From Marivita sp. (GTDB lineage: Bacteria > Pseudomonadota > Alphaproteobacteria > Rhodobacterales > Rhodobacteraceae): a stretch of DNA of 64,000 bases. Where the stretch lies: assembly GCF_965216415.1 (NCBI RefSeq), contig NZ_CBDCFU010000001.1; one strand, 5' to 3'. Position 1 is the stretch's first letter, and each line of letters opens with the position of its first letter. The notes under the pieces are model-generated. The model saw only the letters and a program-made list of their open reading frames with translations, was not told the origin of the DNA and made no database searches. A program made the translations under genes and the position numbers. Below, in pieces: positions 13,215 to 64,000 of the stretch.

Positions 13215-14161
13215 GGCATGGGTTAAAGTTGTGAGCATGCCAGACGGATTCTCTGATAAGCAATCAACGCACTTTTTCGTGCTCCTGCCATTCGATGGAG
13301 AAGAAACAAACGCGGCATGAGGAGTTTCTCGTGGAGATGGATCCGGTTGTGCCGTTGCCACGGATTATGGTTTTGGTGCGATCCGCATTACCGGAAGGTC
13401 TAATCAAAGGGTGGACGACCACCGAAGCTCTTGGAAATGATGCTGAGCATGTATTCCCTCCAAAACTGGTATTCACTCAGCGACCCAATGTTCGAGGAGA
13501 TGCTGTACGACAGCGAAGCTCGTCGCCATTTCATGGGCATCACACTGGGTAATGATCGCATCCCTGACAAAGCAGCGATCTTGTACTGTCGCCAACTGCT
13601 GGTCCCTTTAGTTGAGCGAAAAGCTGTTTGTGGAGAGGACACTCACCTCACCGATCAAGGTATCACGCTGCGCTTGGGTACACTGATGAATACGACTATC
13701 GTTGATGCTGCGTGCGCGACCGTGAACAAGGCAAACGCGCTCGATCCCGAGATGTCGTCGACAAACAAGGCCAACAACTGGTATCTCGCCGTGAAAGCAC
13801 ATGTTGGCGTGGATGCTCTAAGCGAGATCGTATACAACTTAGAAACAACGACGACCAAGACGTAAGACAGTCAGGTTTGGGGTGACCCTCCACACGGTAC
13901 AGAAGCATCAGTCCGCGCCGACAAGGGTCATGTCAGCGTCCTAAGTATGGTGCCTGCAAGTTTTGGGGTGTGATGCGCAACGCGTCAAAGGACAGTGCGC
14001 TGAATCTTGGATGAAGACATCAATCGGATCATCGCGATTGTGGCGGCGCGGGTCGAGCATCCCTTCCGGGTGATCAAGCGCCAGTTCGGATGCATTGAAC
14101 CGAACTTGGCGCAAACTTAGAGCGCGCTGACATACATCACGATCACTTGAATCAGGCTTCA
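13215..14161 (+). mobile_element. Decayed IS5-family element (frameshifted transposase)
   Basis: 'KKQTRHEEFLVEM', 'LQNWYSLSDP..EEMLYD', 'KAHVGVD', 'RVEHPFRVIKRQFG' in different frames; boundaries approximate. Confidence 0.85.
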
Positions 14162-14236
14162 TGACGGAACAGCGTTCCGCACCAAGGACTGTTTCTGTAA
14201 CCTGCTAGACATGTAAACAACACGCATCTGATGTTT

Positions 14237-14440
14237 TCATTCATCGAGAAGGAAAGTTACTTCCATATTGACCCGGTAGCCTTTGATCGAGCCATCTTGG
14301 ACTTGGACGTTCATGTCCTTTACCCAGCAACCCTCGACGTTTCTCAAGGTTTGGTTTGCACGTTCAATCCCTTGACGAACAGCGTCATCAAAGCTCTGCG
14401 GTGAAGTTGCGGAAATTTCGGTTACGCGTGCAATAGACAT
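14237..14440 (-). CDS. Dodecin-family flavin-binding protein
   Basis: 'MSIARVTEISATSPQSFDDAVRQG...YRVNMEVTF'; GAGGAG RBS. Confidence 0.9.
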   Translation of the reverse strand: MSIARVTEISATSPQSFDDAVRQGIERANQTLRNVEGCWVKDMNVQVQDGSIKGYRVNMEVTFLLDE

Positions 14441-14468
14441 AGTGTATCTCCTCTTTGCTCTTAGGAAC

Positions 14469-14493
14469 AACGAAAGCAAAGATGGACAGTTCC
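14469..14493 (-). promoter_or_regulatory. Sigma-EcfG-type promoter of dodecin
   Basis: GGAAC-N16-CGTT on minus strand. Confidence 0.7.
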
Positions 14494-14530
14494 AAAAAAT
14501 TTATCCAAAGGGTGGCTCGCGCTTCCAGAC

Positions 14531-14745
14531 CGTTCGGGCAAGGATTGGACCGACGGTTTCGCAGCGTTTTACGCAGGGCTTAGCCCGGAGAAGGGGCGCT
14601 CATTGATGGTGAGGTGATTGCCAAGCGGATCGGCCTTTTCGTCGCTGGAATCGGCCCCTGAGGTTTTCGCGAATACCTGCCTCGCGGAGGCCAAAGGCAT
14701 TATCTCGAAACGCGCCGAAGCACTCTATCTTGGACGCATCGGCAC
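14531..14745 (+). pseudogene. Second, heavily deleted ATP-dependent DNA ligase (LigD-type) remnant
   Basis: Successive frames give 'RSGKDWTDGF', 'ALIDGEVIA', 'SAFSSLE', 'KGIISKRAEALY'. Confidence 0.55.
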
Positions 14746-14800
14746 CAGCGTTCACGAAGCGGACATGAACGCGGTTCACCGACCATCGCACCCTATTCGC

Positions 14801-15080
14801 TTACGGCCGGCCGCGCCGGTGGCCGTTCTGGTGAGGTGGGAGGACCTTGAAACGTTTGATATATTCCGCGACCTAGGACATGTGATCCCTTTGATTGTCG
14901 GAAAGATCATCCTTGTTCGTGTCCCTGATCTTGATGATGCGTCGCACTGACTCGTGGACCGTGCTCTCGTCCTCGTCGTTGTCACCAACAGATCTCGACT
15001 CCTCAATTTTTACCCAGTCTCACAGTTCGGATGTGGTCATTTTGACCAGTGCCTGCCACTCGTTCCAGATTTCTGACTTT
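14801..15080 (-). pseudogene. DUF3140-family protein pseudogene
   Basis: 'IWNEWQALVKMTTSEL*DWVKIEESRSVG..ESTVHESVRRIIKI..KDDLSD..DHMS*VAEYIKR'; in-frame stops at 15022 and 14875. Confidence 0.7.
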
Positions 15081-15351
15081 TATTTGGATGAAGATATGTG
15101 TGCTTCTGAAAAGTCCGTGTGTTGCAGAGCGAAGCTCACATTAACGAAAGGTTCCCGGCGTAATCCAACCAATCCAAGCTCTTGCGGCCGGCTCACCGTG
15201 GCGCTGTGCGATGCGCTTGCGCAGCCAGATGGGCTGTGTATCGGCGCACATGGCGAACCCGCCCAACCGTGCTTGGCAACACCGTGCCACTGCCAGATGA
15301 CCCTTACCGCTAAGCCCGAGTCACGCGCAAACATCGCCCTAGCCGGACGCG

Positions 15352-54733: not shown

Positions 54734-55813
54734 TCAGCGTTCGCCGTGATGCAGTCCGACTTTCTGTGGCGGCGGCGCTGTGGTCTGACGCAGAATCAGT
54801 TGTACCTCGACCGAGCGTGGCTGAGACACGTCCTTACCGTCCAACCGGTCAAGAATATAGGCCGCAGCGGTGTCGCCCATCTGTTCGGTGGGGACATCGA
54901 CCGTGGTAAGCGGCGGGTTAGAATGTTTGGACAGTTCCAGGTTGTCGAAGCCGACGATGGAGATGTCCTCGGGTATTCGCAGGCCTCGTTCCCGACATTC
55001 GACGATAGCACCAAGCGCCAAAACATCATTCCCGCAGATCATCGCCGTCGGCAAAGGTCGGATGCGCGACAAAAGTGCCGCGCAAGCTTCGCGACCATTA
55101 GCGATGGAATAAGGGCGCTCGATGATCCGTTCGGGTTCAAGCTCAATCCCGTGATGCAAGAGCTCCTTTCGAATGCCATTCAGACGATCAAGCGTACGAT
55201 CATTGTCATGTGTGCGACCCGAAATAACGCAAAAATTGCGATGACCCAGATGCACCAGATGGCGCGTGATGTCCGCAGTTGCAGCCTCATTATCGAAGCC
55301 AACACTGGGGTGGTCTCGTTGTGGGTCAAGCGTATAGGTACACACGAAACACACGTCGTGCTGGTGCAGCAGGTCGTAAAGCGCCGGATCATGCTTTTGA
55401 CCGATCAGAATCAACCCCTCGGCGCCGCGTTCAATCAGAAGCCTTGCTTCCTTTAATTCGGTCTCCAGATCGTATTCAAAAGTCGCGACCAACGCCGAAA
55501 TCCCGGCCGCAGAAAGGCGCCGCGTGGCCGCGCCGACAAGGCTTGCATACAGCGCATAATCGAGCGTCGGGATCAGCGCGCCCACCATATGAGAGCGCTG
55601 CGAGCGCAGGGCCCGGGCCGCATGGTTGCGTACATACCCCAGTTCCTTCATCGCGTTTTCAACGCGGATGCGCTTGTCGGGCGACACCTTGCCTGGGTTG
55701 TTGAGCACGCGTGAGACTGTTGCTGGCGCACAGCCAGCCAGTCGGGCGACGTCCGTCACGCGGACCTTAAGCGTAAAATCTTGCAATCGATTTCTTAATT
55801 CTGAGGTCTTCAT
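54734..55813 (-). CDS. LacI-family transcriptional regulator
   Basis: 'VTDVARLAGCAPATVSRVLN', 'ICGNDVLALG', 'SIVGFDN', 'PLTTV'; start could be TTG 55786. Confidence 0.92.
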   Translation of the reverse strand: MKTSELRNRLQDFTLKVRVTDVARLAGCAPATVSRVLNNPGKVSPDKRIRVENAMKELGYVRNHAARALRSQRSHMVGALIPTLDYALYASLVGAATRRLSAAGISALVATFEYDLETELKEARLLIERGAEGLILIGQKHDPALYDLLHQHDVCFVCTYTLDPQRDHPSVGFDNEAATADITRHLVHLGHRNFCVISGRTHDNDRTLDRLNGIRKELLHHGIELEPERIIERPYSIANGREACAALLSRIRPLPTAMICGNDVLALGAIVECRERGLRIPEDISIVGFDNLELSKHSNPPLTTVDVPTEQMGDTAAAYILDRLDGKDVSQPRSVEVQLILRQTTAPPPQKVGLHHGER

Positions 55814-55898: not shown

Positions 55899-55914
55899 TT
55901 GAAATCGATTTCAA
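55899..55914. promoter_or_regulatory. LacI-type operator overlapping TRAP operon promoter
   Basis: Perfect palindrome TTGAAATCGATTTCAA with central CG; TTGACT 17 bp upstream; weaker copy at 55781-55796. Confidence 0.72.
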
Positions 55915-55955: not shown

Positions 55956-56450
55956 ATGAAGAGGCAAAGACACTCGATCATGCTCAGGGCTTTGCTGGGA
56001 CTCACGAAAGCATCCATCATCGTGATCTCGATCGTCATGGTCCTCGTCACGCTGGCGCAAGTGGTATTTCGATATGTGATCGCCGCGCCGCTGCCATGGT
56101 CCGAAGAGCTGGCGCGTTATTGTTTCGTCTGGATTGTCTTTCTAGGTGGCGCGGTCGGTTTGTCGAAAGGCATCCATCTTGGTGTCGATCTGGTCGTCAA
56201 CTTGCTACCTGAAACGGCGCGTCGCGTCATGGATGGCCTCACAACGGCGCTTATCGCGATCTTTGCGGGCACCATGATCTACGCCAGCCTTCCCGTCCTG
56301 AGCATGAACATGTTCCAACGCTCACCGGCTCTTGGGGTGCAGATGACCTGGATTTACATGGCGATCCCGGTCTCGATGGGTCTGATCGTTTTGATCTGCG
56401 TCGAACGTTTGGTCGCCAACGCCGTACCACCAAAATGGTCAGAGGATTGA
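55956..56450 (+). CDS. dctQ: TRAP transporter small permease
   Basis: 'PWSEELARYCFVWIVFLG...HLGVD'. Confidence 0.9.
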   Translation: MKRQRHSIMLRALLGLTKASIIVISIVMVLVTLAQVVFRYVIAAPLPWSEELARYCFVWIVFLGGAVGLSKGIHLGVDLVVNLLPETARRVMDGLTTALIAIFAGTMIYASLPVLSMNMFQRSPALGVQMTWIYMAIPVSMGLIVLICVERLVANAVPPKWSED

Positions 56451-56456
56451 TCCCGC

Positions 56457-57734
56457 ATGCTGATAATCCTCTTCCTTACCTTTTTCGTTTTGCTGCTGAT
56501 CAATATGCCGATTGCCTTTGCACTGGGCATCGCGACGCTAACGACATTGCTATTCAACGACACGCTTCCCATCAACAGCATCGTCACGCGTGCCTTTGTC
56601 GGCGTCGACTCCTTCACTCTTCTGGCCATCCCGTTTTTCATCATTGCCGGAGAGTTGATGAACGCCTGCGGCATCACCGAGCGGATCGTGGCCTTCGCCA
56701 GATCACTGGTCGGCCACATACGCGGCGGGCTCGCGCATGTCTCGATCGTGTCCAGCATGTTCTTTGCGGGCATATCGGGATCGGCAACGGCAGATGCTTC
56801 CGCGCTCGGCTCGATGATTATCCCCGCGATGAAAAAGAACGGTTTCGACGCGGATTACGCCGTCGCGGTCAATGCCTCTTCCAGCGCAATCGGCCCGATC
56901 ATCCCGCCGAGCATCATGATGGTCATATATGGATCAATTGCGAATGTTTCGATCGCACAACTCTTTCTCGCCGGTTTTGTGCCGGGTGTCGCCATGGGGC
57001 TGGGACTGATGGGTGTGGCCTATTACATCGCAAAAAAGCGCAACTATCCTGCCCCGCCCCGAAACGAACTGCCGCCAGTCCTGCGGTCTTTCGGAGAGGC
57101 TGCCATCGCACTGTTGATGCCTGTCATCATCCTTGGGGGCATTTTCTCGGGAGTTTTTACCGCGACCGAAGCGGGAGTTGTGGCAGTCGCCTATGCGGCG
57201 ATTGTCGGGACGTTCGTCTATAAGACTCTAAGCTTCAAGCTGGTCGGGGAGCTTCTGGTCAACGCTGCGGTCACGACGGCGGCCGCGATGTTCCTGATCG
57301 CCATGGCCACGTCTTTTGCTTGGCTTCTAGCCTGGGCCGGGTTCGGTGCCGCCGTGCTAGAAGTGCTTGGTGGCATATCAAGCAATCCAACCTTTGCGCT
57401 TCTGCTGATCGTCCTGTTCATCCTGATCCTTGGGCTGTTCATCGAAGGCATTCCGATCCTGATCATCTTCACGCCAGTACTGCTGCCTGTCATTCTCGGT
57501 TTGGGGATCGATCCGGTATTTTTCGGGGTGATCATGGTCATGTCCGTGGTCATCGGGTCGGTCACGCCGCCGGTCGGCATCTTGACATATATCTCCTGTT
57601 CCATTGGCGGCATCACGATATCGCAGGCGATCCGAGGTCTGCTACCGTTCTGCGCGGTGCTGATCACGGTTCTGCTGATCTGCACTGTCTTCCCCGCAAT
57701 CGTCATGACGGTGCCGACGCTGTTCGGGAACTGA
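56457..57734 (+). CDS. dctM: TRAP transporter large permease
   Basis: 'AIPFFIIAG', 'GGLAHV', 'ISGSATAD', 'IIPPSI', 'TPPVG'. Confidence 0.92.
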   Translation: MLIILFLTFFVLLLINMPIAFALGIATLTTLLFNDTLPINSIVTRAFVGVDSFTLLAIPFFIIAGELMNACGITERIVAFARSLVGHIRGGLAHVSIVSSMFFAGISGSATADASALGSMIIPAMKKNGFDADYAVAVNASSSAIGPIIPPSIMMVIYGSIANVSIAQLFLAGFVPGVAMGLGLMGVAYYIAKKRNYPAPPRNELPPVLRSFGEAAIALLMPVIILGGIFSGVFTATEAGVVAVAYAAIVGTFVYKTLSFKLVGELLVNAAVTTAAAMFLIAMATSFAWLLAWAGFGAAVLEVLGGISSNPTFALLLIVLFILILGLFIEGIPILIIFTPVLLPVILGLGIDPVFFGVIMVMSVVIGSVTPPVGILTYISCSIGGITISQAIRGLLPFCAVLITVLLICTVFPAIVMTVPTLFGN

Positions 57735-57765: not shown

Positions 57766-58923
57766 TTGGGCATTTCAACCGACGAACTTAAGCAACGCAC
57801 CGAAAATCTTCGCAGCCGAATGAAGGCCGAAGGCTATGACGCGCTGATCATCTATTCCGACGAATATCGTTCGGGCCATTCGACCTATGTCACCAACTAC
57901 AAGCCGATAAACGTGATCGAAGAGTCGCCGCAATTGGTGCTGATTGTCGGTGACAATGCGCCGGTGGTCTTTCTTGGCCGTCTGAATGCCTATGCGGCCA
58001 AGGACATGTGCTGGATCGAGGATGTACGTGGCATCCATCGTCCCTATACGGACTTTCCTCAGGTTTTTGAGCCGATTGTCGGACAGGCTAGCAAAATCGG
58101 ACTGATCGGCAAGAACATCCTGCCCTTCGAAATCTATGAACAGCTTGTCCATGCCGTGCCGGAAGCGGCAATCGAGAACCGCGACGACATCATGCTTGAT
58201 CTGCGAAAGATCAAGACCTCTGACGAGATTGACTTGATGGAGCAGGCCGCCGAAATCAACGATACTGTGCTTAAGCGCGCCGCACGTGAGGTTAAGGTCG
58301 GCATGACCGAGATTCAGGTCGCCGGACTGGCCGAAGGCATCGCGCGCGAGATGAACGCGGATATCGGATCGGCCACCGTCGTCATGTCGGGCCCGAATAC
58401 AAACTACCCAGCCTGGCGGGCGACCGACCGCAAGATCCAGCCCGGCGAATACGTCATGCTCGATTTCAACCCCGCCATCGGCCACTACTGCAACGATGGC
58501 GGCATCACCATCCTGATGCCCGGTGCCGATCCCGAACAGGAACGCGCGCTGATCGTTGGCCACAAGGCCCTTAAAAAGGTGATTCCGACCATCCGGCCCG
58601 GCATCACCGCCCGATCGATTTTTGATACGCTTCTGAAAGAACTGGAGCCGCATGGCTTTGCTGACAATTTCACCCCTTATGCCAAAGGCTTGCGCGGTGT
58701 TGGACATGCGGTTGGCCTGGATGTTGTCGAACCGCCGAACCTAAGCTCGGACAGCGATTTCGAACTGGAGGCGGGCATGACGCTGGCCGTGAAGCTTGAT
58801 CTTCACGACTTGCCTGGCGGCGGCTACCGGATCGAAGTGGTGGTTGCTGTCACCGAAGATGGCGTGCGTCCGCTCAACAAACTGGTTCTCGAGGAGCCGG
58901 ATGATTTCGCCGTTCAGCGCTGA
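57766..58923 (+). CDS. M24 (pita-bread fold) hydrolase, Xaa-Pro peptidase/creatinase-like, atypical active site
   Basis: Creatinase-type N-domain; 'LDF...YCND', 'GHAVGLDVVE', 'LAVKLD', 'RIEVV'; TTG start. Confidence 0.8.
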   Translation: MGISTDELKQRTENLRSRMKAEGYDALIIYSDEYRSGHSTYVTNYKPINVIEESPQLVLIVGDNAPVVFLGRLNAYAAKDMCWIEDVRGIHRPYTDFPQVFEPIVGQASKIGLIGKNILPFEIYEQLVHAVPEAAIENRDDIMLDLRKIKTSDEIDLMEQAAEINDTVLKRAAREVKVGMTEIQVAGLAEGIAREMNADIGSATVVMSGPNTNYPAWRATDRKIQPGEYVMLDFNPAIGHYCNDGGITILMPGADPEQERALIVGHKALKKVIPTIRPGITARSIFDTLLKELEPHGFADNFTPYAKGLRGVGHAVGLDVVEPPNLSSDSDFELEAGMTLAVKLDLHDLPGGGYRIEVVVAVTEDGVRPLNKLVLEEPDDFAVQR

Positions 58924-59016: not shown

Positions 59017-60000
59017 ATGATTAGAAGAACACTTTTCAAGACGCTCGGCGCGGCAGCTGTGCTTTCACTGGGAGCAATCGCCAATCCGGCATTGGCGCAG
59101 GACAAGACGATCCGTGTGGCCTCAGTCACAGGTCCCTCGCATCACCACAACGTTTCACTGCGCTGGTTCGCCGATCAGGTGGCCGCACGCGATGTGGGCC
59201 TCAACATCGAGGTTCTAGACGGCGCCCAATTGGGCGGAGAAAGGGACTATATTGAAGGCATGATGCTGGGCAGCATCCAGATGGCACAGGTGTCGACCGC
59301 GCCAGTCGCGGGATTCATACCGGAATTCGACCTGTTTAGTCTGCCCTACCTGATCCGCGACACCGAACACTTCAAAGCGGTCGTTTCGGGTCCCGTCGGC
59401 GAGAAATTTAATGCTCTGGCCGAAGACCGCGGTCTCAAAATCCTTGCGTGGTTCGACAATGGGTATCGCAATGTTTTTAACAAGGAACGCCCAATCGTGA
59501 CGCCTGAGGATATGGATGGGCTGAAAATTCGCGTGATGGAAAGCCCGCTGATGGTCAACACCGTTAATGCAATGGGCGGCTCGGCGACGCCGATGTCCTA
59601 TAGCGAACTTTACACTGCGCTTGAGCAGGGTGTGCTGGATGGCGGAGAAAATGCGGCCGGGAACGTACTGAACGATCGCTTCTACGAGGTCAGCAGCTAT
59701 CTGTCTATGACCCAGCATTTCCGCCCGCCGGGCATCGTGGCAATCAGCATGTCCACCTGGAACGGCCTGAGCGAAGAGCAGCAGCAGGCGCTGATTGAGG
59801 AAGGTGCACGGCTTCAGGAGTACGAAATTGCCCTGACTGCCGAAGTTGGCGCCGCCGCGCTGGCGGAACTCGAAGCCAAAGGCATGAAGATCAACGAGGC
59901 GGATGTTGGCGCCTTCCGCGACCGGATGGGCCCGGTCTACGAAGACTTCACGGCCAAGCACGGTGCAGAGCTGCTCGAAGCGGTTCAGAACACGCAATAA
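59017..60000 (+). CDS. dctP: TRAP transporter substrate-binding protein
   Basis: Signal peptide; 'DNGYRN', 'GLKIRV', 'YSELYTALEQGVLDGGEN'; GGAGG RBS. Confidence 0.92.
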   Translation: MIRRTLFKTLGAAAVLSLGAIANPALAQDKTIRVASVTGPSHHHNVSLRWFADQVAARDVGLNIEVLDGAQLGGERDYIEGMMLGSIQMAQVSTAPVAGFIPEFDLFSLPYLIRDTEHFKAVVSGPVGEKFNALAEDRGLKILAWFDNGYRNVFNKERPIVTPEDMDGLKIRVMESPLMVNTVNAMGGSATPMSYSELYTALEQGVLDGGENAAGNVLNDRFYEVSSYLSMTQHFRPPGIVAISMSTWNGLSEEQQQALIEEGARLQEYEIALTAEVGAAALAELEAKGMKINEADVGAFRDRMGPVYEDFTAKHGAELLEAVQNTQ

Positions 60001-60103: not shown

Positions 60104-60907
60104 ATGCTGCGCAAGCTTCTGATCACCGGCGCCAACGGAAACTTGGGGTCGATCTGCCGCCAGCGACTTGGCCATATTGCAGAAACCATCCGTTTGAATG
60201 CCCGGAAGGGGTTGGGTGACGCAGGTCCGAATGAAGAGATCGTTTATTGCGACCTGAGCGACAAGGCGGCTGTCGAGGCGATGGTCGACGGCTGCGACGG
60301 CATCGTTCATATGGGGGGGCGCGCGGTAGAGGGTCCGTGGGAGATGGTTAAGGCGGCCAATATCGATGGCATGTTCAATCTCTACGAAGGGGCGCGGAAT
60401 TCCTCGGTTCAGCCGCGCATATTCTTTGCAAGCTCTCACCATACGACTGGATTTCACACGCAGACGACGCGCCTTGACCCCAGTTCCACCCCGCCGCGTC
60501 CCGATGGTCTTTACGGAGTCTCAAAGGTATTTGGCGAGGCGCTGGCGCGGATGTATTTCGACAAGTTCGGAATCGAAACCGCCAGCGTGCGCATCGGCTC
60601 TTGTTTTCCCGAACCACCCAGCCACCGGATGCTGTCGTCCTGGCTGAGCGCAGATGACATGATCGCGCTGATCGAACGGATATTCAGCGTTCCACGGCTT
60701 GGCTGCCCGGTGCTGTACGGCGTGTCAAATAATGACGCCAGATGGTGGGACAACAGCAGCATCGATTATCTGGGCTGGCGCCCAAAGGACAACTCCGAAC
60801 GCTTCCGTGCCAAACTAAATGCCGAACAGACACCGCCGAGACGCGATGAGCCGGATGCGATCTATCAGGGTGGTCTGTTCTGCACAGATGGTATCCACGA
60901 AGAGTGA
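60104..60907 (+). CDS. udh: Uronate dehydrogenase (NAD-dependent, extended SDR)
   Basis: 'LITGANGNLG', 'ASSHHTTG', 'RPDGLYGVSK', 'RIGSCF', 'SSWLS'. Confidence 0.82.
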   Translation: MLRKLLITGANGNLGSICRQRLGHIAETIRLNARKGLGDAGPNEEIVYCDLSDKAAVEAMVDGCDGIVHMGGRAVEGPWEMVKAANIDGMFNLYEGARNSSVQPRIFFASSHHTTGFHTQTTRLDPSSTPPRPDGLYGVSKVFGEALARMYFDKFGIETASVRIGSCFPEPPSHRMLSSWLSADDMIALIERIFSVPRLGCPVLYGVSNNDARWWDNSSIDYLGWRPKDNSERFRAKLNAEQTPPRRDEPDAIYQGGLFCTDGIHEE

Positions 60908-60937: not shown

Positions 60938-61729
60938 ATGATGCGCGCTAACAGATTGAAACAGATTTGGGCCTCGGGTGGGGCTGCGGTGAATGGCTGG
61001 CTGGCCGTTCCGAATGGGTTTTCGGCTGAGACCATGGCCAATCAGGGCTGGGATTCTCTGACCGTCGATATTCAGCACGGAGTCGTCGATTATCAGGCCG
61101 CTGTCGCGATGCTGACCGCGATTTCCACGACCGAAACGGTGCCCGTTGTCCGCGTGCCCTGGCTAGACCCTGCGCACCTCATGAAGGCGCTTGATGCCGG
61201 CGCTTATGGAATAATCTGCCCGATGGTGAACACTCGTGAGGATGCCAAAAAACTTGTAGCCTACACCAAATACCCACCCCTTGGTACCCGAAGTTTTGGC
61301 CCGATCCGTGGACTTCTATATGGCGGTGCGGATTACCCCGAGCACGCCAACGACACCGTCGTCGTTTTTGCCATGATCGAAACGCAGCAGGGGCTGGATG
61401 AACTCGACGAAATCCTCGCGACCCCCGGTATTGATGCAGTCTATGTCGGCCCGTCCGATCTTTCGCTGGCTTTAGGCTGCCGCCCGACATTTGACGATGT
61501 GGATCCGCCCGTCGCCGAGGCCATCGCGCATATTGCCGCCAAAGCCAAAGAACGGGGCAAGGTCTGCGGGATACATAACGGAACACCCGAGGTCGCGCTA
61601 AGACGGATCGAGATGGGATACCAGTTTGTCACCATCTCGTCAGACGCACGTCTGATGGCGGCAGGATCGCAGGCGATTCTGAAGCGGATGCGCGCCATAC
61701 CAAGCGCATCACAGACATCCGGTTACTAA
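60938..61729 (+). CDS. garL: HpcH/HpaI aldolase (5-keto-4-deoxy-glucarate aldolase-like)
   Basis: 'VDIQHG', 'VRVPW', 'MIET', 'YVGPSDL'. Confidence 0.8.
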   Translation: MMRANRLKQIWASGGAAVNGWLAVPNGFSAETMANQGWDSLTVDIQHGVVDYQAAVAMLTAISTTETVPVVRVPWLDPAHLMKALDAGAYGIICPMVNTREDAKKLVAYTKYPPLGTRSFGPIRGLLYGGADYPEHANDTVVVFAMIETQQGLDELDEILATPGIDAVYVGPSDLSLALGCRPTFDDVDPPVAEAIAHIAAKAKERGKVCGIHNGTPEVALRRIEMGYQFVTISSDARLMAAGSQAILKRMRAIPSASQTSGY

Positions 61730-61753: not shown

Positions 61754-62641
61754 ATGAGCAAAGTAGGTTTCATCGGGCTGGGAATCATGGGCGCGCCTAT
61801 GGCAGGGCAATTGATTGAGGCGGGGCACGACGTGTTCCTGCATTCGCGTAGCGGTGTTCCGGGACATCTGACCGATGCTGGTGGTACGGCCTGTAAATCG
61901 CCGCAGGCGGTGGCCGAGGCATCAGACACGATCATCCTGATGGTGCCGGACACGCCGCATGTCGAAGCGGTCCTGTTCGCCGAAAGCGGCGTGTCTGCCG
62001 GGTTGAGCGCGGGGAAATGTGTGATTGACATGAGCTCGATATCACCGCTGGCAACCAAGGAATTTGCGCGAAAGATCAATGATCTGGAATGTGATTATGT
62101 AGATGCGCCTGTCTCCGGCGGAGAGGTCGGTGCCAAGGCGGCCAGCCTGACGATCATGTGCGGCGGGTCTGATGCGGGATTTGCGAGGGCGCTGCCGCTG
62201 CTGGAGCAGATGGGCAAAAATATCACCCATGTTGGCGACATTGGGAGCGGCCAGGTCTGTAAAGTCGCCAATCAGATCATCGTGGCGCTGAACATCGAAG
62301 CCGTCAGCGAGGCGCTGGTGTTCGCATCCAAGGCCGGAGCCGACCCGGAAAAGGTGCGTCAGGCGCTTATGGGGGGCTTTGCTTCGTCGAAAATCCTGGA
62401 AGTGCACGGCGAGCGCATGGTTAAACGCACTTTCGATCCTGGTTTTCGCATCGAATTACATCAAAAGGACCTTGGCCTCGCGCTCTCCAATGCCCGTCAA
62501 ATGGGGCTGAGCCTGCCAAACACCGCCACGGCGATGGAATTGTTCAACGCCTGCGTTGCCAATGGCGGGGCCGCGTGGGACCATTCCGGCATGATCCGAG
62601 CCCTTGAACTGATGGCCAGTCACGAAATCGGGCGCTCGTAA
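61754..62641 (+). CDS. garR: 2-hydroxy-3-oxopropionate (tartronate semialdehyde) reductase
   Basis: 'GFIGLGIMGAPMA', 'DAPVSGGE', 'CKVANQ', 'PGFRIELHQKDL'. Confidence 0.88.
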   Translation: MSKVGFIGLGIMGAPMAGQLIEAGHDVFLHSRSGVPGHLTDAGGTACKSPQAVAEASDTIILMVPDTPHVEAVLFAESGVSAGLSAGKCVIDMSSISPLATKEFARKINDLECDYVDAPVSGGEVGAKAASLTIMCGGSDAGFARALPLLEQMGKNITHVGDIGSGQVCKVANQIIVALNIEAVSEALVFASKAGADPEKVRQALMGGFASSKILEVHGERMVKRTFDPGFRIELHQKDLGLALSNARQMGLSLPNTATAMELFNACVANGGAAWDHSGMIRALELMASHEIGRS

Positions 62642-62644
62642 GCC

Positions 62645-64000
62645 ATGGCGCGCACGCCCCGCCTGATCCGCATGCATGCGTCAGATAACGTCGCTGTCGT
62701 TGCCAATGATGGCGGGCTGCCCGCAGGCACAGAGGTGGACGGATTGACACTGATCGACGACGTGCCGCAGGCCCACAAGGTGGCGCTGACCGATTTGAAA
62801 ATGGGAGATTCAGTAGTTCGTTACGGGGTCCTGATCGGGCATGCTGAACAGGCGCTGTCGGCCGGTGCCTGGGTGAATGAAACCAACCTCGCCATGCCCG
62901 CACCTCCGGATCTTTCCGATCTGACAATGCCCGCCAAAATGCTCGCCAACCCCAAACCTCTGGACGGATATACCTTTGAGGGGTTTCGCAATCGCGATGG
63001 CAGTGTCGGCACACGCAACATCCTCGCCATTACGAACACGGTGCAATGCGTTTCCGGTGTGGTCGAACATGCGGTGGATCGTATTCGGCGCGAGATGCTG
63101 CCCAAGTTTCCCAATGTCGATGATGTTGTTGCGTTGGATCATACTTATGGCTGCGGCGTTGCGATTGATGCGCCGGGCGCGGCTGTGCCGATCCGGACCC
63201 TGCACAACATCGCGCGCAATCCGAATTTTGCCGGATCGACAATGGTTGTCAGTCTTGGCTGCGAGAAATTGCAGCCAACCCGGCTGTTCCCTGAATTAAC
63301 CTTGGGCCCAGGCGCTGAAGACAGCCTTGTCACCCTTCAGGACGAAACCCACGTCGGTTTCGAGGCCATGATCGCTTCAATCCTCCGTTCGGCTGAAACC
63401 CACCTGTTTGCTCTGAACTCCAGGGTGCGCGAAACCTGCCCCGTGTCTGATCTGATTGTGGGCATGCAATGCGGTGGCAGCGATGCGTTGTCCGGTGTCA
63501 CCGCAAACCCCGCCCTTGGTGTCGCTGCGGACCTGATCGTGCGAGCGGGCGGCACGGTGCTGTTCTCCGAAGTGACAGAGGTGCGCGATGGTATTGATCA
63601 ACTGGTCTCGCGCGCTGCAGATGAGAAGGTGGCGAACGAACTCATTCGCGAAATGATCTGGTATGACGACTATCTTGCCGCGGGCGGTTCCGACCGCAGC
63701 GCCAACACGACACCCGGCAACAAGAAAGGCGGGCTGTCGAACATTGTTGAAAAGGCAATGGGCTCGATCAGCAAATCGGGGTCCATGCCAATATCCGGCG
63801 TTGTTCCCGCAGGCGAGCGCGCAACGCGCAAGGGGCTCTTGTTTGCCGCAACCCCTGCCTCTGATTTCATCTGCGGCACGTTGCAACTGGCCGCAGGGAT
63901 GAACCTGCATGTTTTCACCACCGGTCGGGGCACGCCCTATGGTCTAGCCGAGGTCCCTGTGGTCAAACTGGTCACACGCAGTGATTTGGCGCGGCGATGG
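62645..64000 (+). CDS. garD: Galactarate dehydratase (runs off window end)
   Basis: SAF domain 'DNVAVV...HKVAL', 'GTRNIL', 'HTYGCG', 'QCGGSD', 'PGNKKGGL'; open to base 64000. Confidence 0.88.

Follow-up and report, generated by a model that had tools for sequence, protein, structure and literature searches.

We find that the M24-family gene in a hexuronate operon of Marivita sp. is the obligate partner of one specialised TRAP solute-binding protein, and that its product, judged from a rebuilt active site, is probably no longer the Xaa-Pro peptidase that public annotations label it as. We infer, with a probability of roughly 45% and hence slightly short of even odds, that this cytoplasmic protein is a non-peptidase M24 enzyme carrying out the first step on a hexuronate-related compound delivered by its partner TRAP transporter, and that this step, most likely a hydrolysis, supplies the Udh or UxaC routes with a sugar acid.

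The window, the whole stretch of 64,000 nucleotides analysed here, holds the gene between dctM and dctP and upstream of udh, garL, garR and garD. Open reading frames together with profile matches reproduced this gene order as given in a preliminary description of the sequence (Table 1). Gene calls in GC-rich loci were GC3-filtered or precomputed ones (the longest open reading frames there included antisense ones).

Table 1 Genes and operator sites of the Marivita sp. locus, with positions in the window.
Feature	Position	Strand	Assignment and remarks
lacI-family regulator	54734-55813	-	divergent from the operon; probable start ATG at 55813, listed open reading frame to 55885
operator-like site O2	55782-55795		TGCAATCGATTTCT; within the first lacI codons, 118 bp from O1
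operator O1	55900-55913		TGAAATCGATTTCA, perfectly palindromic; a -35-like box (TTGACT) lies 17 nt upstream
dctQ, TRAP small membrane subunit	55956-56450	+	PF04290, 126 bits
dctM, TRAP large membrane subunit	56457-57734	+	PF06808, 395 bits
M24 gene	57766-58923	+	TTG start, 385 aa, M24B fold (Creatinase_N + pita-bread)
dctP, TRAP solute-binding protein	59017-60000	+	DctP-type, signal peptide present
udh, uronate dehydrogenase	60104-60907	+	332 bits to uronate dehydrogenase 3RFT
garL-like HpcH/HpaI aldolase (2-dehydro-3-deoxyglucarate aldolase type)	60938-61729	+	below equivalog cut-offs
garR, tartronate semialdehyde (2-hydroxy-3-oxopropionate) reductase	61754-62641	+	TIGR01505, 396 bits, above cut-off
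garD, galactarate dehydratase	62645-64000	+	TIGR03248, 747 bits, above cut-off; open at the window end, stop ~177 nt beyond
SGL (SMP-30/gluconolactonase) gene	from ~200 bp beyond position 64000; 18 bp separate it from the garD stop		PF08450, 194 bits

We propose that lacI and dctQ-dctM-M24-dctP constitute a LacI-repressed uptake-and-conversion module. A lacI-family gene is present in 45 of the 57 M24 loci, the alphaproteobacterial modules carry an identical O1 ahead of dctQ, and O2 is kept at the DNA level in many other M24 loci. Within the 4.48-Mb genome O1 occurs once, apart from the nearby O2. Its sole one-mismatch site (C2:3770715) lies among unrelated genes, and the idea of a wider regulon was discarded; the genome search with O1 likewise returned no additional co-regulated enzyme that could name the substrate. 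In genomes with a stand-alone module, the operator is absent from the Udh loci.

The M24 protein lacks a signal peptide and matches Creatinase_N at residues 11–149 (PF01321, 43 bits) and Peptidase_M24 at residues 157–364 (PF00557, 131 bits), exhibiting the pita-bread domain with amino-terminal Creatinase_N domain of the M24B Xaa-Pro peptidases. HMMER alignments to the prolidases 1pv9, 1wy2 and 5cdl place D233, D244, H314 and E357 at metal-ligand positions, i.e. four of the five ligands of the dinuclear centre (Asp, Asp, His, Glu, Glu) are kept. In all three alignments the first Glu, belonging to the 'EPG' motif, is replaced by K343 (AVKLD) and the His of the 'HE' motif by V321 (DVVEPP), confirming what had been read from the letters before. 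Two further substrate-side histidines are replaced, with PHG becoming P-A216-W and HxxGH becoming R310-GVG-H314; the A216, R310 and V321 positions are presumably those taken by the substrate histidines of aminopeptidase P and prolidase. Furthermore, D345 and H347 sit two and four residues past K343 on a predicted strand. The pocket appears to have acquired side chains suited to a polyhydroxy acid (Arg, Lys, Asp and His). The scores lie far under the equivalog cut-offs for PepQ (107 vs 630 bits), YpdF (102 vs 393 bits) and PepP (44 vs 465 bits).

Structure prediction, which had been suggested as a check, yielded an M24B fold. The AF2 model based on 45 sequences reached a pLDDT of 85.7, with the active-site loop 305–322 below 50, and was better than an earlier model from 13 sequences in which the active-site loops were weak. 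A Foldseek search with this model gave TM-scores of about 0.8 to prolidases, creatinase and DoeA (0.79–0.88 for the prolidases) and found nothing beyond the expected M24B enzymes.

The residues D233, D244, H314, E357, K343, V321, A216 and R310 are invariant in all 57 genomic homologues, covering 49–100% identity, as well as in the 45-sequence alignment, and the changes can therefore be ascribed neither to chance nor to decay. The mean column identity over the 45 sequences is 72%, indicating strong purifying selection, and some 25 polar residues of the pocket do not vary among the homologues. This conservation delineates a clade signature comprising A216-W217-R218, D233-x-N235, N243-D244, R310, H314, D319-x-V321-E322, K343-x-D345-x-H347 and R355-x-E357, invariant in the 57 loci. 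In sister clades at 35–42% identity, Lys likewise replaces the 'EPG' Glu and (A/T)WR recurs; of five sister-clade loci looked up, two (L065 and L087) adjoin dctP. The family was found in Rhodobacterales, Hyphomicrobiales, SAR11, Acidobacteriota, Burkholderiales and others; Roseovarius azorensis DSM 100674 and Palleronia caenipelagi JBTF-M29 are carriers that can be cultivated.

The linkage to the transporter is visible at the gene level. In 52 of the 57 loci, spanning Rhodobacterales, SAR11, Acidobacteriota and Burkholderiales, the M24 gene is followed immediately by dctP, whereas udh is near it in only 20; a lack of linkage in other genomes, which the preliminary description had named as speaking against its view, was thus not observed. 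Among the 301 genera of Marivita's own family, M24 and the close relatives of its binding protein (defined by E <= 1e-70) occur in the identical three genera and are adjacent there. The same replicon carries a second locus, uxaC-dctP2QM-kduI-kduD-uxuB-uxuA, devoid of an M24 gene, whose binding protein (C1:320087-321067) reaches 473 bits against 4X8R and 337 bits against 4MHF, a binder of glucuronate/galacturonate; for the M24-linked binding protein the values are 180 and 140 bits, respectively. The latter keeps the carboxylate-binding Arg (GLKIRV), a second Arg 21 residues upstream and an Asn 40 residues downstream, residues with described roles in glucuronate binders (PMC7660916). Retaining this triad of plain-glucuronate binders, the M24-linked DctP could simply bind a free hexuronate such as galacturonate, which would speak against a modified compound as its ligand.

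What follows the module downstream varies between Udh/GarL/GarR/GarD, a Udh-family dehydrogenase with an enolase-type enzyme and an aldolase in SAR11, uxaC, and none of these. In two lineages uxaC stands directly after dctP, and stand-alone LacI-TRAP-M24 modules exist in genomes that encode Udh elsewhere. A strong Udh is present in nine of the 15 module genomes and UxaC in four others, where the apparent absence of Udh from the uxaC-linked genomes rests on possibly incomplete metagenome-assembled genomes, two of the four holding a Udh-family homologue of 37–38% identity. From these arrangements, the M24-TRAP module appears to feed any of three hexuronate routes. Some Paracoccaceae metagenome-assembled genomes have urease genes adjoining the module, which we considered as a sign of urea release and rejected as shared synteny of close relatives.

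In the scheme that we favour, the TRAP transporter would import a carboxylate-bearing compound akin to, yet distinct from, free D-glucuronate or D-galacturonate. M24 would act first inside the cell and convert it to a free hexuronate or a close sugar acid, which the host route would then take up, here via Udh, the SGL lactonase, GarD, GarL and GarR, elsewhere via UxaC or via Udh and an enolase-type enzyme. The most likely chemistry would be hydrolysis of an amide- or ester-type substituent at the D233/D244/H314/E357 site, operating either with one metal or with K343 replacing the lost Glu in its role. Family members that carry the same active-site residues and lack TRAP genes adjoin an aminotransferase, hydantoinase A/B, an M19 dipeptidase and an amidohydrolase, and these amide-handling neighbours hint at C–N bond chemistry. 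A hydrolase of uronate conjugates had been one of two earlier suggestions for this gene. It fits the pairing of M24 with its binding protein, the three hexuronate routes, the separate M24-less TRAP system and the amide-gene neighbours of the TRAP-less members; the specific substrate named at the time, an N-uronoyl amino acid, is pointed to by nothing in our data.

The other earlier suggestion, an aldaro-lactonase, started from the premise that no lactonase is visible in the window. This is literally true, but the SGL-family gene begins shortly past the window end (Table 1), so that the premise of an absent lactonase was wrong and the proposed look downstream turned up the very gene held to contradict this suggestion. 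An SGL-family gene also follows garD in six related M24 loci. Moreover, M24 is absent from 60 of the 63 Udh-bearing genera of Marivita's family and is therefore not a core step of uronate oxidation, and the UxaC route, to which the module is joined in two lineages, involves no lactone. With the stand-alone modules pointing the same way, the plain lactonase reading was downgraded.

A more restricted lactone role, in which M24 hydrolyses or isomerises the galactaro- or glucaro-lactone made by Udh and complements the SGL lactonase, is in our estimate unlikely. Its likely target would be the stable 1,4-lactone, untouched by the known 1,5-lactonases; UxuL and UxuF were reported to have no activity on 1,4-lactones (PMC6353982). 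A dehydrogenase of the Udh, Gfo/Idh/MocA or Zn-ADH type is found near many M24 members. Besides TRAP and M24, the SAR11 clusters encode a dehydrogenase of the Udh family, an enolase-type enzyme, an aldolase and a reductase, with no other lactone-handling gene in the stretches examined, and a lactone role for M24 would thus fill a gap there. The sister locus L087 (SDR, GntR, M24, DHDPS-type, TRAP, enolase-type enzyme, aldehyde dehydrogenase) likewise contains no other lactone-handling gene. Its interpretation as a Udh-Gci-KdgD pathway was rejected, since the SDR, at 26% identity, is no orthologue of Udh, a point that also weakens the lactone role. The L087 enolase-type enzyme resembles 4GGB/4HPN about as closely as 5OLC, which we take to be galactarolactone and anhydro-galactonate cycloisomerase, respectively, and because of this ambiguity and the nature of the SDR the locus was not used as uronate evidence. 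Besides the SGL genes and the many M24-less Udh genera, the lactone role is at odds with the preference of M24 for dctP over udh, with stand-alone modules whose Udh is encoded elsewhere without the operator, and with uxaC directly 3' of the module.

Hydrolysis itself may not have been retained, as M24 hydrolases are proposed to shuttle protons with the Glu that is replaced here. M24 could then be a non-hydrolytic epimerase, isomerase or lyase that uses the new Lys/His pair and an enolate stabilised by metal to make a Udh or UxaC substrate from an unusual imported uronate, such as mannuronate, guluronate, iduronate or one substituted at position 4, a possibility we regard as rather doubtful. 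It accounts for the same linkage data as hydrolysis of an imported compound and agrees with the uronate-carboxylate residues retained in the binding protein, with the loss of the shuttle Glu, and with the invariant new K343, D345 and H347 alternating along one strand. The M24 fold already includes one lyase, DddP, which acts next to a carboxylate. On the other hand, the TRAP-less members reside among amide- and peptide-handling genes, and no epimerase or sugar isomerase with the M24 fold is known.

Improbable by comparison is a non-catalytic partner, either a ligand sensor or a cytoplasmic TRAP accessory similar to non-enzymatic M24-fold proteins such as Ebp1 or the Spt16 amino-terminal domain. 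The lost metal ligand and catalytic-site histidines as well as the occurrence of Spt16 among the distant matches would be compatible with it, but invariance extends to four of the five metal ligands and some 25 polar residues of the pocket, some members exist without any TRAP genes, and a dedicated LacI regulator is already in place. Finally, an ordinary Xaa-Pro dipeptidase or aminopeptidase placed in the operon by chance, or an inactive relic, is scarcely credible: prolidases are the best sequence and fold matches and the public annotation follows them, but the invariant replacement of the metal-ligand Glu and three substrate histidines, the low PepQ and YpdF scores, the strict association with a sugar-acid TRAP in different phyla and the strong purifying selection all oppose it, and the rebuilt site argues against the plain prolidase activity that had been named beforehand as a refuting outcome.

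Should the favoured first-step role apply, the annotation 'Xaa-Pro peptidase' would be wrong for a well-conserved family, and this family would mark a substrate class absent from reconstructions of hexuronate catabolism built on Udh, UxuL/UxuF, Gli/Gci, GarD and UxaC. It would also extend the range of non-peptidase chemistries of the pita-bread fold, here with Lys replacing a metal-ligand Glu. Among the carriers of the M24-TRAP pair is SAR11, an abundant ocean group, and the complete cluster in its streamlined genomes suggests that the imported compound is relevant to marine dissolved organic carbon. A full-text literature search on M24 or peptidase proteins with TRAP, uronate or SAR11 found no published description. 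More tentatively, M24 may be the founding member of an unrecognised sugar-acid-specific M24B branch with a Lys-rebuilt metal centre, mononuclear or bridged by a carbamylated Lys, which together with its private TRAP binding protein would form a new hexuronate entry route, present even in streamlined SAR11, for an environmentally common modified uronic acid. Such a compound might derive from bacterial and algal polysaccharides, as a uronic acid amidated with an amino acid or substituted in another way. As the binding protein and the M24 enzyme are small and soluble and the latter can be coupled to Udh, the question is directly testable.

Compared with known systems, M24 has the two-domain architecture in common with the prolidases (M24B; P. 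furiosus 1PV9 and P. horikoshii 1WY2), which represent its best sequence match (130 bits; TM about 0.8–0.88) and whose metal site agrees with that of M24 in the two Asp, the His and the final Glu. In contrast, their SD(I/M)TRT motif reads NDGGIT in M24, their 'EPG' Glu is Lys, their three substrate-binding histidines are Ala, Arg and Val, and the gene context is sugar-acid uptake rather than peptide metabolism. Creatinase (1CHM, 7YTO) also has the two-domain fold (TM about 0.8) and is likewise a non-peptidase M24B protein whose metal site is altered and whose substrate bears a carboxylate, but M24 scores 47 bits to 1CHM, its locus shows no guanidino-compound context, and the PHG-position His, presumably the creatinase catalytic residue, is A216. 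For the DMSP lyase DddP, M24 reaches 28.4 bits against an NCBIfam cut-off of 600.

The aldarolactone hydrolases UxuL and UxuF and the lactone isomerase Gli occur in the same operon type (udh, garD or gci) and would fill the step first proposed for M24; an SGL-family gene is, however, already part of the Marivita operon, and M24, unlike these enzymes, tracks the TRAP binding protein and not Udh. Their folds, a beta-propeller or an amidohydrolase, are unrelated to M24, and the SMP-30/gluconolactonase beta-propeller domain of the UxuL-type SGL proteins is absent from the M24 protein. With the UxuPQM-type hexuronate TRAP systems (4X8R, 4MHF, 4N15), the M24-linked DctP shares the sugar-acid branch and the Arg/Arg/Asn residues, at about 140–180 bits versus 307–473 for the second binding protein on the replicon, whereas the canonical UxuPQM-type systems have no M24 gene.

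The ectoine hydrolase DoeA/EutD (6TWJ, 6TWK, 6YO9) is set apart by scores of 54.6 and 31.2 bits against NCBIfam cut-offs of 575 and 613, by a score of 34 bits between 6TWK and the M24 family profile, by an ectoine instead of a hexuronate gene context and by a different binding-protein clade. None of the ectoine genes (eutABCE/doeBCD) was present among the Pfam-annotated or tblastn-identified M24 neighbours examined, a subset of the 57 loci. Nevertheless, DoeA/EutD likewise adopts the M24B fold (TM about 0.8) and handles a small carboxylate-bearing non-peptide substrate; its genes lie with a TRAP system that imports this substrate, and the enzyme catalyses the first catabolic step. By analogy, DoeA/EutD thus appears to be the closest functional counterpart of the M24 protein.

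The M24 gene opens with a TTG codon and encodes a 385-residue protein, in which Pfam matched Creatinase_N and Peptidase_M24 domains. Some database relatives are annotated 18 residues shorter (367 aa; stretch 57766–57822), starting at a Met aligned to M19; as these amino-terminal 18 residues are kept in most homologues, the TTG at 57766 appears to be the favoured start. HMMER alignments to three solved prolidases concordantly indicated that the metal-ligand positions D233, D244, H314 and E357 are retained, with K343 occupying the Glu position of the 'EPG' motif and V321 the His position of the 'HE' motif. The substrate-pocket histidines are likewise swapped, for A216 (PHG to PAW) and R310 (HxxGH to RGVGH). 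All these residues lacked variation among 13 or 45 aligned family members and were constant in 57/57 genomic homologues, as were W217, R218, N235, Y241, N243, D319, E322, D345, H347 and R355. The altered active site noted in the preliminary description was thus correctly read, and its constancy at 49–100% identity identifies it as a selected trait rather than decay. The invariant residues K343, D345 and H347 make up a new set, placed at every second position of one predicted β-strand; one may speculate that K343 carries a carbamyl group or serves in acid/base catalysis.

An AlphaFold2 model based on a 45-sequence alignment reached a mean pLDDT of 85.7 and a pTM of 0.85, with values below 50 for the loop 305–322 containing R310, H314 and V321. 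Foldseek returned TM scores of 0.79–0.88 to prolidases and ~0.8 to creatinase and the ectoine hydrolase DoeA; the family profile scored prolidases at 130 bits, creatinase at 47 and DoeA at 34. The protein stayed below all curated NCBIfam cut-offs, the top scores being archaeal PepQ (107 bits against 630) and YpdF (102 against 393). Fold and profile scores place it as an M24B protein nearest to prolidases and outside every characterised subfamily.

The gene is part of a tightly spaced, co-directional row with a divergent LacI-family gene. The palindrome TGAAATCGATTTCA is identical across the alphaproteobacterial modules and has a single occurrence in the 4.48-Mb genome, so that the LacI regulon is local and offers no extra substrate clue. 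Together with the related site 118 bp away, it would make a pair of LacI-type operators. Since the genome has GarD and lacks a GudD-type glucarate dehydratase, the operon looks galactarate-directed.

Features of the M24 operon and of related loci on the 389-kb replicon (C1); bare coordinates are window positions
Feature	Position	Strand	Remark
LacI-family gene	54734-55813	divergent from operon row	
Operator-like site TGCAATCGATTTCT	55782-55795		related to palindrome; within first lacI codons
Perfect palindrome TGAAATCGATTTCA	55900-55913		17 nt after TTGACT box; overlaps dctQ promoter
dctQ	55956-56450	+	
dctM	56457-57734	+	
M24	57766-58923	+	
dctP	59017-60000	+	
udh	60104-60907	+	332 bits to uronate dehydrogenase 3RFT
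garL	60938-61729	+	
garR	61754-62641	+	
garD	from 62645	+	
SGL (SMP-30/gluconolactonase family) gene	C1:190274-191263 = window 64196-65185; L061:1477-2466		completes operon udh-garL-garR-garD-lactonase
Canonical hexuronate locus	C1:313765-323389		gntR; uxaC-dctP2-dctQ2-dctM2-small cupin-kduI-kduD-uxuB-uxuA

A scan of the genome collection for M24 homologues yielded 57 loci; several of the genomes drawn on in the analysis are metagenome assemblies. Linkage in other genomes, whose absence was to count against the proposal of the preliminary description, was very strong: dctP lies directly 3' of the M24 gene in 52/57 loci, and a contig end cuts one more. The common core is lacI divergent from dctQ-dctM-M24-dctP; SAR11 loci place M24-dctP divergently to a dctQM-udh-like-enolase-type-aldolase row, and among solved proteins Udh is clearly the closest to the SAR11 dehydrogenase (177 bits). 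The genes after the core differ between loci: Udh (11 loci; a further 9 have the SAR11-type Udh), GarD (17), an enolase-superfamily enzyme (14), uxaC immediately 3' of dctP (two lineages, L008 and L090) or no related gene. Among 15 module-bearing genomes, nine carry a strong Udh somewhere, four others UxaC and two neither; where the module stands alone, Udh lies among unrelated genes without the operator. Close DctP relatives (E ≤ 1e-70) were present in exactly the 3/301 genomes that have M24, and the two genes are adjacent there: the binding protein is inherited along with M24.

The genome comprises two contigs, one of 389,286 bp carrying the window and one of 4.09 Mb; the former is probably a megaplasmid or chromid, which fits the patchy distribution of the module (3/301 genera). 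In locus L008, a mannitol-dehydrogenase-family (UxuB/UxaB-like) gene after uxaC (13666–15168) is split into parts of 289 and 210 aa by a single in-frame stop and may represent a pseudogene or reflect misassembly. SAR11-type loci (L043–L047, L056) carry a conserved ~120-aa ORF directly 3' of dctP (e.g. L047:12276-12644), the sole gene of those clusters without assignment, for which Pfam gave no significant match. In several Paracoccaceae MAGs, urease and urea-transporter genes adjoin the stand-alone module (L059:13370-18449; L067:1-6853), probably reflecting shared synteny of close relatives.

The premise that a lactonase is missing was not borne out, as an SGL gene (PF08450, 194 bits) begins 18 bp past the garD stop, ~200 bp beyond the window end. 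Six related loci, that of Roseovarius azorensis among them, repeat the order garD–SGL; the SGL protein of this species as query also detected a paralogue at C1:109342-110223 (54% identity). When the window's own family was sampled at one genome per genus, 63/301 genomes had Udh (E ≤ 1e-60) and 3/301 had M24, so that uronate oxidation normally proceeds without M24.

The canonical hexuronate locus, ~131 kb from the window on the same replicon, contains no M24 gene. Its binding protein DctP2 scores 473 bits to 4X8R, 337 to 4MHF and 307 to 4N15, against 180, 140 and 163 bits for the M24-linked DctP, whose best solved relatives reach 194; 4MHF is Bpro_3107, a binder of D-glucuronate and D-galacturonate (PMC7660916). 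By these scores, a standard TRAP for free hexuronates is already available to the cell, and the M24-linked TRAP is a second, divergent system. As a caveat, the M24-linked DctP keeps the Arg/Arg/Asn triad that grips glucuronate in characterised binders (PMC7660916), indicating a carboxylate ligand that may be very uronate-like.

Two gammaproteobacterial members lack the TRAP genes (57–58% identity, same signature residues); their neighbours encode a sugar-type ABC transporter, class-III aminotransferase, hydantoinase A/B, M19 dipeptidase, an Amidohydro_3 protein and an NHL propeller, a context hinting that the family has kept C–N bond chemistry. Two Chloroflexota-like TRAP-less loci adjoin genes for an NHL propeller, isochorismatase-family hydrolase, PfkB kinase, BtpA, Zn-ADH and aldo-keto reductase. 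Throughout the TRAP-less loci (L052, L057, L053, L042; e.g. L052:3128-18742) the active-site signature is unchanged and an NHL β-propeller of ~285 aa lies beside the gene. Sister clades (35–42% identity) likewise have Lys at the Glu position, in the contexts GntR-M24-DctP and GntR-M24-DHDPS-DctPQM-enolase-Aldedh, beside Zn-ADH or, in an archaeon, beside GH88. The archaeal contig, with a thermosome gene near, carries the Lys variant (38% identity) and, in divergent orientation, a gene for a GH88 unsaturated glucuronyl hydrolase (L088:7839-10173), with UxuA and an HpcH aldolase nearby.

Taken together, M24 appears tied to the binding protein rather than to Udh and to feed three distinct hexuronate routes. 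A canonical hexuronate TRAP and an SGL lactonase are encoded in the same genome, and most Udh-bearing relatives lack M24. The simplest account of this pattern is that the partner TRAP imports a hexuronate-related compound, on which M24 would perform the first intracellular step, giving a sugar acid usable by Udh or UxaC. The most likely chemistry is hydrolysis, in view of known M24-fold chemistry and the amide-handling genes around TRAP-less members; we give this modest weight, since K343 replaces the Glu proposed to act as proton shuttle in M24 hydrolases. Perhaps M24 is instead a lactone hydrolase or isomerase, possibly with 1,4-lactones as substrates, on which UxuL and UxuF are reportedly inactive (PMC6353982); such a role would supply the one step visibly missing from the SAR11 clusters and sister locus L087 but leaves the uxaC-linked and stand-alone modules unexplained. 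Rival readings are a non-hydrolytic epimerase, isomerase or lyase acting on an unusual uronate, and a non-catalytic partner. An ordinary peptidase is very unlikely.

In public annotation the names are generic ('Xaa-Pro peptidase family protein', 'M24 family metallopeptidase'), and the openly readable full-text literature searched yielded no description of M24 or a peptidase with TRAP, uronate or SAR11. Assignment to DoeA/EutD, prolidase, creatinase or DddP was rejected, because defining features are lacking or scores fall short of the cut-offs. By analogy, the enzyme closest to M24 in its working would be DoeA/EutD, in which the M24B fold acts on a non-peptide acid; DoeA/EutD is also encoded together with the TRAP system importing its substrate.
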